Below are positions 53,373-64,000 of a stretch of DNA of 64,000 nucleotides, piece by piece. Numbering within the stretch: position 1 is the stretch's first letter; every line of letters starts with the position of its first letter. Below the pieces are notes generated by a model. It made no database searches. It was not told where the DNA came from and saw only the letters and a program-made list of their open reading frames with translations. The DNA comes from Naegleria gruberi (taxonomy: Eukaryota), in assembly GCA_000004985.1 (NCBI GenBank), contig GG738875.1, one strand, 5' to 3'. A program made the position numbers and the translations under genes.

Positions 53373-54446
53373 ATGTCTCAACAACCGTCAATGAATCACA
53401 CAACTTGGTTTGATCAAGATTTGCTGTTGGCCAATATATTTCTCTATTTACATCCGTATGAATTATTTGATAATTCTAAATTATCTTCATGTAGAAATGT
53501 TTGTAGATCATGGAATGGTTTAATTTGTGGTGAAGAATTTTGTAAATTTTATTTTGAAAACTCGTTTTGTTGTTATTCGTCCGAACCTTTTATTAATCAG
53601 TTAAATTGTAATCAATTGTTTGATACTTTAGATGATGCACAATTTAATTGTTTTATGGATGAGGATGATGATATTCAAGAGGTAAAGCCTATTAATACGT
53701 TAACAATTCAAGAATCTATTAAACAATTTGAACATGTGGCAATTACTAAAATTGGATATGAATTCAATAATTTAAATTGGAAAAATAATTTTTACAAACG
53801 ATTTCTAACACTAATTGCATATTTAAAAGATATTGATTCTGCAATTTGGAGTGTAACTGAATCATTATTAAAACCATTAGATGATTCAAAAGTATTTAAA
53901 TTAAATAATTTATTGAAAAAGTGGAAACTATCAAAATTATTATCCAGTAATATATTTGAAATCAATGAAAAGACAATGTTATTTTTTAATGATGATGGAA
54001 TACCATATGTATTAAGATCCATTCGTAAAAGATTAATTCTTGACAACATTGAGATTATGAACAATATTAAATTTGGATTTGACAAGGAAAGGATCACTAA
54101 AGTCCTTCCACAACTTGACAAAAAACAAGACCAACAAGTGTTGTGTGATGTAATGTGTGGATTATTTCCAAAATTAGTAGAAAAAAAGAAGAAACTACTA
54201 ATTAAAAGGCCACTAACAGAATTCATGATGTTTGTCAGGAGTGAAAGAGAAAAAATTAAACAAGAAAATCCTACAATAACTAATATGGATATTATTAAAA
54301 AAATGGCACACATTTGGAAAGAAATGGATGATAATGAAAAGCAAATTTATGTTGAACAAGCAATTCAAGAAAAATTGAAATATCAAAAACAAAAAGAAGA
54401 ATTCATTTATTGTATTAGTGGATTAGATGAAAATGTTAGTGAATAA
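53373..54446 (+). CDS. F-box plus HMG-box protein, 357 aa.
   Basis: The aaaaaaATG start is followed by the F-box LLLANIFLYLHPYELFDNSKLSSCRNVCRSWNGLI. The C-terminal HMG box is KRPLTEFMMFVRSEREKIKQENPTITNMDIIKKMAHIWKEMDDNEKQIYVEQAIQEKLKYQKQKEEF. Confidence 0.65.
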   Translation: MSQQPSMNHTTWFDQDLLLANIFLYLHPYELFDNSKLSSCRNVCRSWNGLICGEEFCKFYFENSFCCYSSEPFINQLNCNQLFDTLDDAQFNCFMDEDDDIQEVKPINTLTIQESIKQFEHVAITKIGYEFNNLNWKNNFYKRFLTLIAYLKDIDSAIWSVTESLLKPLDDSKVFKLNNLLKKWKLSKLLSSNIFEINEKTMLFFNDDGIPYVLRSIRKRLILDNIEIMNNIKFGFDKERITKVLPQLDKKQDQQVLCDVMCGLFPKLVEKKKKLLIKRPLTEFMMFVRSEREKIKQENPTITNMDIIKKMAHIWKEMDDNEKQIYVEQAIQEKLKYQKQKEEFIYCISGLDENVSE

Positions 54447-56189: not shown

Positions 56190-58289
56190 CTAGACCTTCA
56201 TTTTGGGTAAAATGCTTAGCTCCTTTTCCAATTGTTTCTCATATGATGCTTGGAAACGAGTGTAATTATCCAACATGTTGTGTTCACAAGCTGTTTGAAT
56301 TCTATCAAATATTTCAGGAGTGATGGCAAAGAGGAAACTCATATCTTGTGGATTTGTGGAAGTTTGCTTTGGAGAAATATTCAATTTTGGAGAAGGTGAA
56401 ACATTTCCATTTTTAGAAGCAAAATTAATGGTACTGTCTTTTAGGGATTTGAAGATTTTCTCAATTTCTGGAATTCCAAAATCCTTTCTTGAAATGTTCA
56501 ATTCAAGAGGAGCTCCAATTCGAATATAAGTATTACAAATATTGTAAAATAATTCTCTTCTTTGTTTTTCTGATTTGATTGTTTTGAATTTCTCAATGGC
56601 ATTCCACATCATGACATCTTCACATGCAAAACATTTTTCTGAGAATTTCAGAAAGAGATTATTCCACTTTTCATTCAGTAAAATCTTTCGAATGCTACTT
56701 TCAGAAGGTTTCGAATGTTGAAGTTTAGAATCAACTGATGGAGTGCTTTCTGTATGTTGTTTCTTGTCAGATTTGAATCTTTGAAGGAAGAATACAGGAT
56801 ACGTGAATGAAATTAATGTATCCCACATATTTCCAATTAAAATTGTAATCGTCCATGGGAAATAATAATCAATACTTTACAAAATATTACAATTATTATT
56901 CTAATCTCAGATATATATTACTTACTAGGTTGTAAAAATAGTGAATAAAGAAGGCACAGCATACAATACAATAAAAAAAACCCATCCAAATATCACAACA
57001 ATAACCTCAATCTTAATATGCCAAACATCTCTCTTGGTAAAGAATGAAAACAATAACAGTAAAACTCCAATAAATCCATAAAAGGCAAAATAACTAATGA
57101 AAATATTTTGATTGTAAGATCCAGTTCCACATCCAGATGGTGAAAATAAATAACTATCAATTGTAAAGCTATTTCTCGAATTGCTTGATGCACCTCCAGT
57201 ATTTTGAAAATTGAAATAGTCAATTGTGCCAATAATTAGGAAAATTAAAATGTGTAGAGCTAGTAATAATCCATAATAAATGAAAATAAATTTGGAGCTC
57301 ACTAGAAATCTCATAATGGAAATTAATTTGCCTCTTTCGAATGATTCTAATAGAGTTTCTTTTCTGAAAATCATTTCGTCTTCAAGTGGTTTGTCAGTTG
57401 TGATATCTTTTGGTTCGATTGTGAATTGTGACATAATGCTTGAAGTTCTGCCAACTGTCAATGCTGACAATGAGGTTCTATTGGTAGCTTTCAATAATCC
57501 AGATGAGCTAGAAACACTGCTTGTTTCTGAATGAACTTTCAATTCTTTCATTTCAGTGTCAGTTGTCAATGGGTTGTTGGCAGATGGAGGAGTATTATTC
57601 AATGTTTCCAATATATCCAAACTCACATTTGCATCCATAAGTGGTTTCATATTTTCTGATGATGTTGTTGCATGCAAGTCATATTGTCTCTTTCCAATCC
57701 TCACTTTCAATTCGTTCAGTTTGGTCAATACCAACAATCTAATACATCTCAATATGACAGTATTCGAAAGTGCAGGCACAGCCAAATAATAGATTAGTGA
57801 AAATATGAAACATGGATAAATCTTTCGTCCAATTAACACTCTAGTCATTAATACGAAAGTATAGGTCCATCCAATAATTGCTCCCATGACCATCAATGCT
57901 GGATTCCTGGCAACCTGCAAATAATTCACAACTTGTTTGTGTTCCTTTTGGAGAATATGCAACATTCTCAATTTATAAACTAAACCTCCAACCGAAACTA
58001 ATAACAAACATGTGTGAATAAAGAGGATAATTGCTGAAATAACAACAGCTGATGTGGTATCATCACACAATCCCTTCTCACTCTTGTTTCCTTGTGAAAG
58101 GAGGAGTGGATGACAAACTGTGCTGTCATTATACATGTTGGTAGAGTTGACTATTAGTGAGGTGTTGATATTGAGCGTTGTGTGGATGTTGAAAATGGGC
58201 ACATGCATGTTGGTGACATGGAACGTCAACGTGGATAAAAATCCATCAAACATGCCATTTGTCTCTTCGGAATGAGCATTCAAATCCAT
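56190..58289 (-). CDS. Seven-transmembrane receptor-like protein with a C-terminal RGS domain (7TM-RGS), paralog 1: complement(join(56190..56874,56926..58289)).
   Basis: Track ORF 56925-58304 has six hydrophobic helices and ends ...SLFTIFTT then tag. A GTAAGT donor sits two nt into that stop codon. A 51-nt intron (56875-56925) then joins in frame to YIDYYFPWTITILIGNMWDTLISFTYPVFFLQRFKS (helix 7). This runs into track ORF 56190-56828, whose RGS domain is ILLNEKWNNLFLKFSEKCFACEDVMMWNAIEKFK...ELFYNICNTYIRIGAPLELNI...ACEHNMLDNYTRFQAS. The real ATG is 58289 (cttgaaaATG). Confidence 0.7.
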
Positions 58290-58535: not shown

Positions 58536-60536
58536 TTACACTTTAAGCTTGGCTACGATATCCAATTCCTTTTCCAATTGTTTCTCATACGATGCTTGGA
58601 AACGAGTATAATTATCCAACATGTTGTGTTCACAAGCAGTTTGAATCTTGTTGAATATTTCAGATGTTATTGAGAATAACAAATTATTTGGGTCAACCTT
58701 TGCATTGTTATTCGAAACCTTTGGAGAAACATTTCCATTCTTTGAGGCAAAATTAATGTTACTCTCCTTTAATGCATGATAAATGTCCATAATTTCTGGA
58801 ATTCCAAAATCCTTTCTTGAAATGTTTAATTCAAGAGGAGCTCCAATTCGAATATATGTATTACAAATATTGTAAAATAATTCTCTTCTTTGTTTTTCTG
58901 ATTTGATTGCTTTGAATTTCTCAATGGCATTCCACATCATGACATCTTCACATGAGAAGGATTTCTCTGCGAATTTCAGAAAGAGATTATTCCACTTTTC
59001 ATTCAGTAAAATCTTTCGAATACTACTCTCACCAGAAATATTTACACTGGAAACTGAAGGATTGGTCGAGAGAGCTGGTTCAATGGAATTACCCTCTGAC
59101 TTGTTTGATTTGAATCTTTGAAGCACAAAAACTGGATAACTGAATGAAATGAGTGTATCCCACATGCATCCAATTAAAATTGTAATTGTCCATGGGAAAT
59201 AATAATCAACACTTTAAAATGTTAAGTTATCAAAACTTAATGATACCTACTATGTGGTAATAATTGTAAATAAGGAAGGAATACTAAAAGCAAGAACAAT
59301 AGCAGCCCAAAACAAGTTAATAATCACAACTTCAATCTTAATATTCCACACGTCTCTCTTTGCAAAAAAGGCAATTATGGATAGTAAAATTCCAATTAAT
59401 CCATAAAAGCAAAAGTAGCTAATGAATATATATTGATTGTAAGCTCCAACTCCACATCCAGATGGTGAAAATAAATAACTATCAATTGTAAAACTATTTC
59501 TCTTTTGATTTGTTTTTACAGAAGTATCATTTTGATAATTGAAATAGTCAATAATGGCAATGATAAAGTAAATGCTCAAGTGAAATCCAATGACCACAAC
59601 ATAGCTCAATAAAACAAATTTGGAGCTCACGAGAAATCTCATGATGGAAAGTAATTTTCCTCTTTCGAATGATTCTAATAGAGTTTCCTTTCTGAAAATC
59701 ATTTCCTCTTCCACATTATTTTCATCATCATCTGCATTACTATCCTTAGGTTCAATTACAAATTGTGAGAGAATACCTGAAGTTCTGCCAACTGTTAATG
59801 CTGACAAATTTGTACTGTTCTGATTTCCAGCTAAACTACTATTCGAAATGGATAAACTATCAAGAGACGTAACTGTTTCCAATTCCTTTTCCACTTGATT
59901 TTGTGAAATATTCGTGTTTTCCTCAATCATGGATTTCATATTGTCCGATGATGTTGTTGCATGCAAATAATATTGTCTCCTTCCAATCCTCACTTTCAAT
60001 TCGTTCAGTTTCGTCAATATCAACAATCGAATACATCTCATAATAATAGTATTCGAAAGTGCAGGAATAGCAATAAAATAGATTAGTGAAAATATGAAAC
60101 ATGGATAAACCTTTCGTCCAATTAACACTCTCCCCATCAACATGAACGTATAAGACCATCCAATCAGTGCTCCAATTACCATTAATAATGGATTCCTTGC
60201 AACCTGCAAATAATTCACAACTTGTTTTTGTTTCTTCTTTAAAACATGCAACTTTCTCAATTTATAAACTAAACCTCCAACCGAAACCAAAACGAGCATT
60301 GTGTGAAGAAACAAAACAATGGCAGAAATTACTGTGGAAGAGGTCATGTCATCACACAATCCCTTCTCACTCCTATTTCCAAGAGCTAATAGGAGAGGAT
60401 GACACACAGCACTATCATTGTATTTGTTATAGGTATTGTTGTTGTTAATGGTGATGGAATCGTTGGAAAGAGTTTCGAATATGTTGTAGGAAAGAGATGT
60501 AATGACATCAGCATGTGGTTGGTGGTGAAAGGACAT
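58536..60536 (-). CDS. 7TM-RGS protein, paralog 2: complement(join(58536..59211,59251..60536)).
   Basis: Same architecture as paralog 1. A GTAGGT donor inside the tag stop of the 7TM ORF and a 39-nt intron (59212-59250) give ...SLFTIITT-Y-VDYYFPWTITILIGCMWDTLISFSYPVFVLQRFKS and the RGS domain. The bridging peptide differs from paralog 1 by 2 of 15 residues, although the ORF track treats it as intergenic. Confidence 0.7.
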
Positions 60537-61207: not shown

Positions 61208-61663
61208 ATGATTAATCTAGAGTGTGAAGTTGCACCTCTCTTGAGAAAGTTCATGTATCTTGCCAATATTATGGTGGCAGGATATGTGGCTTGTTTCGCT
61301 CTATTCTTTCCTCAACAGGCACAATCTGAACTCTTCTATGGGAATTCACTTACTGATGATGGAAGTACCATTGCAGTAATGATTGTTGGATGTCATTGGA
61401 TGGCCATTGTCATCATTTCAATGTTGGGATTGTTCTTTCCATTACAATGTTCCATCGTTTTCGTTCATCAATTGATTTATAAGAGTTTGTACTTGTTGTT
61501 GGTTGCCTTGCCTGCCATGTGGATGAAGAGAGAGGTGCCTCAACCCATGACCACACTCTTTGCTATTTGGGTGTTGTTGTTGCCTTTGGTCATTCCATGG
61601 CATTACTTGTTTCACAGTGAAGATAATATTTCAGCAAAACCTGTTTCAACAAAACAAGAATAA
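61208..61663 (+). CDS. Small hydrophobic protein of 151 aa, about four transmembrane helices.
   Basis: ORF with hydrophobic stretches (ANIMVAGYVACFALFF, IAVMIVGCHWMAIVIISMLGLFF, LYLLLVALPAMW, LFAIWVLLLPLVIPW). No family assigned. Confidence 0.35.
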   Translation: MINLECEVAPLLRKFMYLANIMVAGYVACFALFFPQQAQSELFYGNSLTDDGSTIAVMIVGCHWMAIVIISMLGLFFPLQCSIVFVHQLIYKSLYLLLVALPAMWMKREVPQPMTTLFAIWVLLLPLVIPWHYLFHSEDNISAKPVSTKQE

Positions 61664-61719
61664 TAAACATAATAAACAAACAAACTGTAGGGCAAAAACC
61701 CATTCCTTAATACCAAAAA

Positions 61720-64000
61720 ATGCGCAAGCTTACCCACACTGTATTAAAATCACATTCTTCTGCAGTGATTAATGCTCGCAAAGTGCCCTCTATCATCAAA
61801 TCAAATAATATTTTGAATGTTTCATGGCATCCATGGAAAGCTTTTCAAACAACAAGTCCTTGGCAAAATCAATCCTTCACACGGGACGGTTCTTCGGTTC
61901 TTGGGGGAAAGCCACCAACAGAGACAACAGACAACAAATCCATCATCACCCTAGCATTGAAAGACTTTGACACCTGGTCGGTTGCACAAGTATCTGCTGT
62001 GTTGATGTTGAGCAAACAGGAAGGGGGTATCGGTTTGTCCGAGGAGAAGATCAAACCACTCTATGATTCTGCTTTTGATGGACTGGCTCTGAGCTATATT
62101 GCAACAGGTATTAAGGGAAATAGATTAGAAGGAAAGAGTGAAATCAGTTGTATCGAACATACCATCAAGACAATTACAAACAGTAAGGACTTTGCTTCAG
62201 TGCCGAAAACTACTTGCACAACTGTTGTTGAATGGGTTGCTACCAAGTTGACACCTAAACCATATAGGTTGTGGAACACTCAAGAGTTAGATGATTTTCT
62301 TAGCAAACCAAAAGCCGAGGGAGGTGCTGGATTGAGTGATGAGTCCGTGGTCTACCTCCATCGTGCCAAAATCGACAACCTAACACTTGCCCGAATTGTT
62401 ACTGTCATTAAGGAAGAAAGAATGAAAGGCCTTACAGAAGAAGAATGTATTGAGCTTGCCACAAAGATAATGACAAGCGATAAGGACTTTGCTTTAGTAC
62501 CAGAATCTACTTGTAAAGCTGTCACTGAGTGGGTTGCTGCCAAGTTGGCTCGAAAGGCTGATGAGAGAGGTACTTTCATTAACATACCCTCCGATTTGCT
62601 TGGTCATTGGAAGCGCCAGTTGGGAGGAGAAATATCTGAAGGTTTGAGAAAGGAAAGAACAAATGCAAAATATGACTACCTCCGTAATTTACATGATCCA
62701 ACAAACATGAAAAAACTGGAAAATTTCATTGGAACATATATTGATCTTCCTGTCTTTGGAAAGGAAGATAGTGATTTATCTCCAAAAGACTTTGATCCAA
62801 ATGATAAATTTCTTTTAACTCAGCAACGATTTGATATACTGAAAAAGGTTGTGAATGGAAGCACTGGATTGGTTTTATCAGGTCCTCATGGAATTTCAAA
62901 GTCATACACACTTTATCTAATAGCTGCCTATGCCTTTGTAAATTCCATTCCAGCACTCTATGTTCCAAAGTGTCGTTCCTGGCTCAGCACTTTCAACATA
63001 GATAAGGAAGTTGGTGCCAATAACTACTTGCGTAGATTGTTCTTTTCGCTGAATAGTGACATTCTTTCTACGACCCAAATTATGGAATTACAGAAATCAA
63101 GAAATGTGGTCGAACATTTGAGCACCCATATTGGAGATAAGGGATCTATGTTCTATTTGTTTGATGAACACAATGAATTATTCAGACCTGACTATTACAA
63201 TAAGATTCCTGCTTCTTTTGCTTATTTTCAAGATTTTATCAGATGGACAGGAGTTACATCAGGGAATTACACAGTTACTATCTATTGTGGAAGTGCTCAT
63301 AGCTCCTTCGAAGACCATTTACCAGGAGGAGAAAGAGGAAGGGTAGTTAGAATCACTCCTCCAACAATGACAGAATTTGAACAACTTGTTTCAGCTGTGG
63401 GTTTGAATCCAAAGGATAAAAGAATAGCTCATGTAACAGGAAGAATTCCAAGAGAGTTGAAATACTTGGCTGACCATTTGAAAGGTAAAAAGGGTACTGA
63501 TGAAGATTTCAACCATTTTATCACAGTAAGGCAGGGAGAATATGCTTCTAGATTGCGCTCATTAGTTAACAAAATGGACAAAGAGGAGAATGATGAGTTT
63601 TTAAAAACACTTGAAGATCTTTTTACTCTGGGTCTTTTCGATGGAAGACCTTGCACTGTTTCAGGAAATGTTTACGATATGGGTTTACTATACAAGGATT
63701 CTGATCAAAACCTTTATATTATTAATGATCCAGCAAATAGATGCTTATTCCATCACTACTGCAGCAAAGTTGACATGCCACACATACCCAAGAATATTTC
63801 TGTTTCACAGAAAGGAGCACTGTTTGAAAAATACTTGTTAAGACGAGAGTATGGACTTTGTAAACATTTGGATGGAAAATTCTATGTAACAAACAAGTTG
63901 AGTACAACCACAACATCCACCTTATCATATGAAGTTAACGAACATGCAAGTTTGGATCTAAAGGATTTACATTCCCTCAATCGAAGAAACTATTTGCGGG
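61720..64000 (+). CDS. Partial gene of more than 760 aa with three N-terminal SAM-like repeat modules and a P-loop NTPase domain. It continues beyond the window end and is absent from the ORF track.
   Basis: A continuous stop-free frame runs from the ATG at 61720 (ccaaaaaATG) to the window end. Repeats KDFDTWSVAQVSAVLMLSKQEGGIGLSEEKIKPLYDSAFDGLAL, KDFASVPKTTCTTVVEWVATKL...LWNTQELDDFLSKPKAEGGAGLSDESVVYLHRAKIDNLTL and KDFALVPESTCKAVTEWVAAKL... are SAM-like. The Walker A LVLSGPHGISKSYTL is followed by MFYLFDEHNEL, a Walker-B-like hhhhDE. Confidence 0.65.
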   Translation, partial: MRKLTHTVLKSHSSAVINARKVPSIIKSNNILNVSWHPWKAFQTTSPWQNQSFTRDGSSVLGGKPPTETTDNKSIITLALKDFDTWSVAQVSAVLMLSKQEGGIGLSEEKIKPLYDSAFDGLALSYIATGIKGNRLEGKSEISCIEHTIKTITNSKDFASVPKTTCTTVVEWVATKLTPKPYRLWNTQELDDFLSKPKAEGGAGLSDESVVYLHRAKIDNLTLARIVTVIKEERMKGLTEEECIELATKIMTSDKDFALVPESTCKAVTEWVAAKLARKADERGTFINIPSDLLGHWKRQLGGEISEGLRKERTNAKYDYLRNLHDPTNMKKLENFIGTYIDLPVFGKEDSDLSPKDFDPNDKFLLTQQRFDILKKVVNGSTGLVLSGPHGISKSYTLYLIAAYAFVNSIPALYVPKCRSWLSTFNIDKEVGANNYLRRLFFSLNSDILSTTQIMELQKSRNVVEHLSTHIGDKGSMFYLFDEHNELFRPDYYNKIPASFAYFQDFIRWTGVTSGNYTVTIYCGSAHSSFEDHLPGGERGRVVRITPPTMTEFEQLVSAVGLNPKDKRIAHVTGRIPRELKYLADHLKGKKGTDEDFNHFITVRQGEYASRLRSLVNKMDKEENDEFLKTLEDLFTLGLFDGRPCTVSGNVYDMGLLYKDSDQNLYIINDPANRCLFHHYCSKVDMPHIPKNISVSQKGALFEKYLLRREYGLCKHLDGKFYVTNKLSTTTTSTLSYEVNEHASLDLKDLHSLNRRNYLR

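Follow-up and report, generated by a model that had tools for sequence, protein, structure and literature searches.

A probable Crinkler-type gene of Naegleria gruberi in which two SAM-like modules precede an mS29/DAP3-like STAND NTPase

Crinkler proteins are the closest described relatives of the gene discussed here, a long open reading frame (ORF) that starts at position 61720 on the + strand of a 64,000-nucleotide stretch of Naegleria gruberi DNA (NCBI GenBank assembly GCA_000004985.1, contig GG738875.1; the whole stretch is called the window below). In the account of Zhang et al. 2016 that is given in PMC5289972, the C-termini of Phytophthora CRN proteins are mostly "NTPase + HTH + REase", i.e. 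a nucleoside triphosphatase, a helix-turn-helix and a restriction endonuclease; toxicity is attributed to the REase, which the NTPase is believed to regulate, and CR proteins are described there as having "various unrelated alpha-helical" headers besides the ubiquitin-like (Ubl) one. The CR-ATPases of Crinkler effectors, S29/Dap3 and RNA12 make up one STAND subgroup (Kaur et al. 2021, PMC8195603), and in the annotation of N. fowleri one gene has already been named "crinkler (CRN) family protein" (PMC13380426).

In our view the ORF is probably a single-exon nuclear gene for a Crinkler/CR-type protein that consists of a leader, two SAM-like modules, a STAND NTPase of the mS29/DAP3-Crinkler clade and a cut C-terminal domain. 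The window protein and the Crinkler module are alike in the domain order of the body, and here homology is demonstrated. They differ in that a basic leader and two SAM-like modules take the place of the Ubl header (PF20147) in the window protein, that a glycine of its Walker A motif is replaced by serine, and that its C-terminal domain is cut inside. Other known systems can be compared too. mS29/DAP3, a P-loop protein in the small subunit of the mitochondrial ribosome, is without the HTH and C-terminal domains that the family shares with Crinkler proteins. The archaeal ATPases PABY2304 (2qen) and SSO1545 (2fna), which belong to Pfam ATPase_2, come from prokaryotes, lack a SAM-like header and end in other C-terminal domains. 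SARM1/TIR-1 and SAMD9/SAMD9L of animal innate immunity combine SAM with an effector or a STAND NTPase, but they show no sequence homology to the window protein, and both their NTPase clade and their effectors are different.

The reading frame itself is secure. An earlier note on this stretch, made from the letters alone, had proposed a long frame from the ATG at 61720 although only short ORFs were listed there, and both statements are borne out: frame +1 stays open for 760 codons up to the end of the window, and ORFs that run off the window are absent from that list. A stop-free run of this length has a chance of about 2e-24 given the local base composition. A TAA in frame at 61708-61710, three codons 5' of the ATG, rules out a start earlier than 61720. 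Over its entire length the translation matches, with 100% identity, a 768-residue database entry, "predicted protein [Naegleria gruberi]" (P0001), which means that the gene is already annotated, though unnamed, and that it ends 8 codons beyond the window. The continuation past the window that the note had expected therefore amounts to those 8 codons; P0001 has the C-terminus ...RRNYLRGTGVPLPE, and the stop (after GTGVPLPE) is known only from this database protein. The note had counted a stop just beyond the window as fatal to its proposal. Such a stop does occur, but the reading of SAM-like modules before an NTPase survives it; what follows from the stop is that the presumed effector domain is incomplete. 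The homolog in N. lovaniensis is one exon of 950 codons, and the family is intronless in that species. A tblastx comparison of this N. lovaniensis locus with the window showed no synteny, so we speak of closest homologs and do not claim positional orthology.

The identification is carried by the comparison with Crinkler proteins. A profile that was built from Heterolobosea only retrieves relatives at E values of 2e-17 to 5e-11. These relatives have an N-terminal extension of about 145-250 residues, and in seven of them (P0095, P0096, P0135, P0153, P0132, P0116 and P0140) the Pfam Crinkler header PF20147 is found well above threshold, with a best E value of 2e-22. Four were looked up and come from the fungi Diversispora, Gigaspora, Podila and Gryganskiella; three of these (P0095, P0135, P0140) are called Crinkler-domain proteins by UniRef. 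When the family body was aligned with the Crinkler protein P0132 by hhalign, the probability was 100% and the E value 6e-44 over 516 columns, which cover the NTPase, the helical region and the C-terminal domain. As the body profile contained one fungal sequence, the comparison of the C-terminal domain was repeated without it, and this domain alone still gave 93.7% and E = 2e-7 over 166 columns. With four heterolobosean rows only, the same hhalign comparison was not significant, i.e. the link of the C-terminal domain to Crinkler proteins depends on intermediate sequences. PF20147, the LxLFLAK-type Ubl header, does not match any heterolobosean or amoebozoan member. We therefore regard the window gene as encoding a protein of the Crinkler/CR type whose header is SAM-like and not Ubl, and the family is of a known kind (Crinkler/CR-type, mS29-like STAND). 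That NTPase, HTH and C-terminal domain together form a module of the Crinkler type had escaped the earlier note. The features of the window protein are as follows.

61720..61956, + strand: N-terminal leader, residues 1-79, basic, with KAFQT
61957..62265, + strand: SAM-like module A, residues 80-182, five-helix bundle
62254..62562, + strand: SAM-like module B, residues 179-281, directly abutting module A; the hidden Markov model (HMM) envelopes overlap by PKPY
62563..62859, + strand: short flexible linker, then a conserved helical stretch that extends the NTPase at its N-terminus and has invariant columns
62860..63354, + strand: P-loop NTPase core with Walker A, Walker B and a sensor-1-like strand
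62881-62904, + strand: Walker A GPHGISKS, residues 388-395, invariant alignment columns
63151-63171, + strand: Walker B FYLFDEH, residues 478-484, invariant alignment columns
63277-63303, + strand: sensor-1-like strand TIYCGSAHS, well conserved
63355..63789, + strand: helical and winged-helix-like region with a GxP motif and YDMGLLY
63436-63456, + strand: STAND-type GxP motif TGRIPRE
63673-63693, + strand: YDMGLLY
63790..64000, + strand: first third of the C-terminal alpha/beta domain, a helix and then a beta-hairpin
63811-63837, + strand: KGALFEKYL, helix of the C-terminal domain

A substantial part of the C-terminal domain is missing. All of the closest full-length homologs (Naegleria, Willaertia) are about 180 residues longer after GTGV, where they continue as LFIPESETFPSFDYAIVMY...EIFLKQTTIS...IYFEK. 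Throughout the diverse family D and Q are invariant in this domain, a G and a P are nearly so, and an H is well conserved. The D stands in FPxFDY and the Q in hFhQx[ST]hS; P0001 stops just before these residues and retains only the first helix and the beta-hairpin. In the model of a homolog the domain is built of a helix, strands and a helix, with a predicted local distance difference test (pLDDT) score of about 70-96. A profile of the domain retrieved nothing significant from PDB and Pfam, and no sequence search supports a nuclease, hence the label REase-like is taken from the literature. Among short matches that cover only the C-terminal domain, none is assignable to N. gruberi (one is named, from Willaertia, and the rest are metagenomic or ENA entries).

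By analogy with STAND proteins and with the published Crinkler model, the protein would pass between a closed and an open state as it binds and hydrolyses nucleotide at the Walker A and B motifs, its SAM-like modules would mediate association with itself or with paralogs, and in full-length members the NTPase would gate the C-terminal effector domain, which is probably directed at nucleic acids. Several points weigh against our identification or against this mechanism. No curated family model of Pfam, NCBIfam or PADLOC matches the window protein. Every member from Naegleria and Willaertia has a serine where Walker A usually has a glycine in front of the lysine (GPHG[IV]SKS), while GxGK[ST] is kept in the amoebozoan, fungal Crinkler and metagenomic relatives that were examined. 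The C-terminal domain has D...Q-x-[ST] instead of the canonical D...(D/E)xK, so that the lysine of PD-(D/E)xK is absent and nuclease activity is doubtful. Finally, the presumed effector core is absent from the window copy, and the gating mechanism is inapplicable to this copy as such. Without this core the window copy may be a decaying gene, or it may act as an adaptor, regulator or partner that has no effector of its own.

The first of these two options amounts to an alternative explanation, namely that the window holds a copy without function, on its way to becoming a pseudogene, from a family with fast turnover. We think this possible, if on the whole unlikely. It fits the loss of about 180 residues relative to the closest full-length homologs, with the end placed before their invariant D and Q, and it fits the state of other members, since P0012, P0006 and P0004 are truncated or have deletions. 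It also fits the only other match in N. gruberi, P0014, which is a rearranged chimera on a 10-kb scaffold outside the window. Residues 1-132 of P0014 are 98.5% identical to residues 151-282 of the window protein; then follow about 440 unrelated residues that contain a CPFCDCP...H cysteine/histidine motif and have no Pfam match, and the end of the protein is the very C-terminal domain core that the window gene lacks. P0014 could result from a mobile-element insertion, from a rearrangement or from an artefact of gene modelling. On the other hand, the 768-codon ORF is still intact in an AT-rich genome, and all invariant NTPase motifs are preserved. Decay is in any case compatible with the identification as a Crinkler/CR-type gene, as it bears on the present-day function only. 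A 224-kb contig of Willaertia magna carries the paralogs P0011, P0012 and P0017 (ABK040_010951, ABK040_010954 and ABK040_010989), of which P0012 is truncated. A local cluster of this sort is typical of lineage-specific expansion, and fast-evolving families of the conflict type typically have members that are truncated, rearranged, clustered and present in several copies.

The header of the protein was originally described as three tandem SAM modules with conserved KDFA.VP..TC..V.EWVA.KL linkers, and this description needs to be revised. In a Smith-Waterman self-comparison, modules A and B align with a score of 205 (z = 34 against shuffles), whereas the 100 residues after module B have no similarity to either of them (z about 0), and a module HMM finds exactly two modules in P0001. 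A third module is rejected on these grounds. The KDFA motif is real, but it does not form a linker; according to the AlphaFold2 model of residues 79-288 (pLDDT 89), which has five helices per module, it is the fifth helix of each. In the family at large the module HMM detects 90 copies in 59 of the 164 retrieved proteins, one to three in each. Word-indexed homolog searches, with the modules alone or with a diverse alignment, added almost nothing.

Whether the modules deserve the name SAM has a divided answer. As a fold the assignment stands: they are compact five-helix bundles that superpose on solved SAM domains. Membership by sequence profile does not. Pfam SAM families have no match in the window protein at E <= 10 and none in 12 family members at E <= 1, a module profile of 23 sequences found no SAM protein among PDB sequences, a Foldseek search of the modules against PDB came back empty, and hhalign of the modules against a SAM domain from Balamuthia aligned helix 1 only, at 6.8% probability. 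The protein that contains a recognizable SAM domain, Balamuthia mandrillaris KAL6049233 (P0045), has a near-threshold match to Pfam SAM_3 (21.4 versus 22.6 bits, E = 2.4e-4), and this match precedes the same NTPase body, in the same position as the modules of the window protein. We take the domain context of P0045 as independent support for the SAM reading and regard the modules as SAM-like in fold, enlarged to about 95 residues and outside all curated SAM sequence families. The core idea of the earlier note, SAM-like modules in front of a P-loop NTPase of the signalling type, is thus upheld by P0045 and by the STAND class of the NTPase; its count of three repeats is not, and no sequence profile places the modules among SAM domains.

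The leader and the SAM-like header are not confined to this NTPase body. They also occur on unrelated NTPase bodies in Naegleria and Willaertia (P0013, P0015, P0031, P0057, P0058, P0059 and P0076), which have weak Pfam matches to AAA_22, AAA_16, NPHP3_N and ATPase_2. As the header is fused to several NTPase bodies in Heterolobosea, it appears to be a mobile adaptor module.

The class of the NTPase was studied with an alignment of 12 heterolobosean family members, which in an exhaustive HMMER search retrieved 320 relatives at E <= 1e-3. Its invariant columns include G388, P389, S393, K394 and S395 as well as F478, L480, F481, D482, E483 and H484, while the TIYCGSAHS strand, the GxP motif TGRIPRE and YDxGL are also well conserved. 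The N-terminal extension contains the motifs KYDYLRNL (62668-62691) and IDLPVF (62740-62757), and in the homolog model it has a pLDDT of 72-97 from about model residue 21 onwards. When diverse relatives were added to the profile, the top 13 sequence matches in PDB were all mS29/DAP3 proteins (best E = 8e-10) from kinetoplastids, plants, ciliates, fungi and others, and these matches span the region from Walker A to Walker B; the next match was the archaeal AAA+ protein 2fna. mS29 is also the closest solved structure. The motifs GPHGISKS and hhhhDE, which had been proposed as Walker A and Walker B, are confirmed. Pfam DAP3 (PF10236, curated threshold 23.1 bits) has no match in the window protein at E values up to 10; it matches 6 of the 12 family members at E <= 1, with a best E value of 1e-4, and its threshold is passed by the relatives P0026 (23.4), P0045 (25.7) and P0047 (31.2 bits) and by several Crinkler relatives. 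The expected STAND features are present, i.e. Walker A, a hhhhD[DE] Walker B, a helical domain with GxP and then a winged-helix domain. By these sequence criteria the NTPase is of the STAND class, in the mS29/DAP3 and Crinkler-ATPase clade, and is not NACHT, NB-ARC or classical AAA. The suggestion of a signalling NTPase was accordingly a sound one, as this is a switch NTPase of the STAND class, and from the candidates that had been named for profile searches (NACHT, NB-ARC, AAA or other) the outcome is "other". Two further proteins combine the same NTPase body with additional domains: the metagenomic P0046 has a PHD finger inserted in the C-terminal domain, and P0060 of Synstelium polycarpum has N-terminal IPT/TIG repeats.

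It follows that a classical NLR-like signalling NTPase (NACHT or NB-ARC) behind three canonical SAM domains, the architecture closest to the wording of the earlier note, is very improbable: profiles of NACHT and NB-ARC gave no match, and membership in these groups is already largely refuted.

Another conspicuous property of the protein is its N-terminal leader. The window protein has no acidic residue in positions 1-55 and eight K/R in positions 1-60, whereas 32 long ORFs of the window have their first acidic residue at a median position of 13, and only 4 of them reach position 50 without one. Residues 40-44, KAFQT (61837-61851), fit a motif that recurs throughout the family, [RK]-x-[YF]-[STQ]-[STQ], with examples such as RSYTT, KNYST, RTFSS and RAFQT. 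It is present in 28 of 46 full-length leaders before the first SAM-like module, about 20-50 residues ahead of the module and after a basic stretch of variable length, in comparison to 2.2 +/- 1.4 in shuffled leaders (maximum 8 in 2000 shuffles) and to 4.5% of 80-residue windows elsewhere in the same proteins; the motif was defined after the data had been seen, and many of the 46 leaders are related to each other. Relatives that have no SAM-like modules, namely Arcella P0029 (MIGMLRSLRRFQSRHYSTF...), P0042 and P0047, start in a similar manner, with the leader directly before the NTPase.

Leaders of this kind resemble mitochondrial presequences that are cleaved at an R-3 site by the mitochondrial processing peptidase (MPP) and Icp55. 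We tentatively suggest, from the sequence only, that the leaders might be mitochondrial presequences with a candidate cleavage site of the R-3 type, although we would put this at rather less than an even chance. Basic, acid-poor leaders stand before SAM-like modules not only in this protein but also in heterolobosean proteins, dozens of them, whose STAND/AAA NTPase bodies differ. A broader proposal is that Naegleria and its relatives import a repertoire of NTPases with SAM-like headers, including Crinkler-type NTPase-nuclease modules, into mitochondria; we offer it as a speculation that is unlikely as matters stand.

The resemblance to a presequence also bears on the explanation that the protein is Naegleria's own mitoribosomal mS29/DAP3 with lineage-specific extensions. 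This would account for the N-terminus and for mS29 being the best PDB match by structure and by sequence. However, there are several paralogs per species, truncated and rearranged ones included, and they have extra N- and C-terminal domains; the results with Pfam DAP3 given above, no match in the window protein and 1e-4 at best among the 12 members, also speak against it. Crinkler proteins, moreover, are more similar to it than mS29 is, and their similarity takes in the HTH and C-terminal domains that mS29 does not have. We therefore give this explanation hardly any weight. Least probable of all is a transposon-borne ATPase of the TnsC/MuB/IstB type with a TnsA-like nuclease, i.e. a mobile element and not a cellular gene, as there is one copy in the window and no adjoining transposase (a membrane-like ORF and RGS genes lie next to it), the family has eukaryote-specific headers and is intronless but otherwise ordinary, and TnsC scores are far below those of mS29. 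The mS29, NACHT/NB-ARC and transposon explanations are thus rejected, and a Crinkler/CR-type gene remains our preferred identification.

The window has a G+C content of about 33%, and its ORFs, which include RGS, HMG-box and F-box genes, are densely packed. The nearest ORF (61208-61663, + strand) encodes a hydrophobic, membrane-protein-like product of 151 residues without a Pfam match and ends 56 nucleotides 5' of the start codon at 61720, which leaves a very short intergenic region. Two ORFs on the - strand, 56190-56828 and 58536-59165, have RGS domains (Pfam RGS, E = 1.4e-9 and 5.2e-11, respectively); with their almost identical N-termini (MWDTLISF[T/S]YPVF...) they resemble tandem paralogs, and a 459-residue ORF without a Pfam match lies between them. 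At 53373-54446 on the + strand an ORF has an F-box-like motif (E = 6.5e-5, below the cut-off) and a C-terminal HMG box (E = 3e-18).

In terms of the family, the analysis gives a name and a domain map to Naegleria proteins that are filed as "predicted" or "hypothetical protein" without a Pfam domain. It places the Crinkler module of NTPase, HTH and C-terminal domain in Amoebozoa and in Heterolobosea, both free-living ones and pathogens such as N. fowleri, with a SAM-like header where Crinklers have the ubiquitin-like one, and it adds structure-based support to the published grouping of Crinkler ATPases with mS29/DAP3. The possible mitochondrial targeting of the whole header family is the sole element that may surprise a specialist. 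If it were true, it would point to an organelle-resident system of surveillance, of cell death or directed at mitochondrial DNA or RNA; it would tie the Crinkler ATPases, both in evolution and in function, to the mitochondrial STAND proteins mS29/DAP3 and RNA12, and, with Crinkler-like proteins targeted to an organelle, the picture of Crinklers as effectors that are secreted or nuclear would have to be revised.

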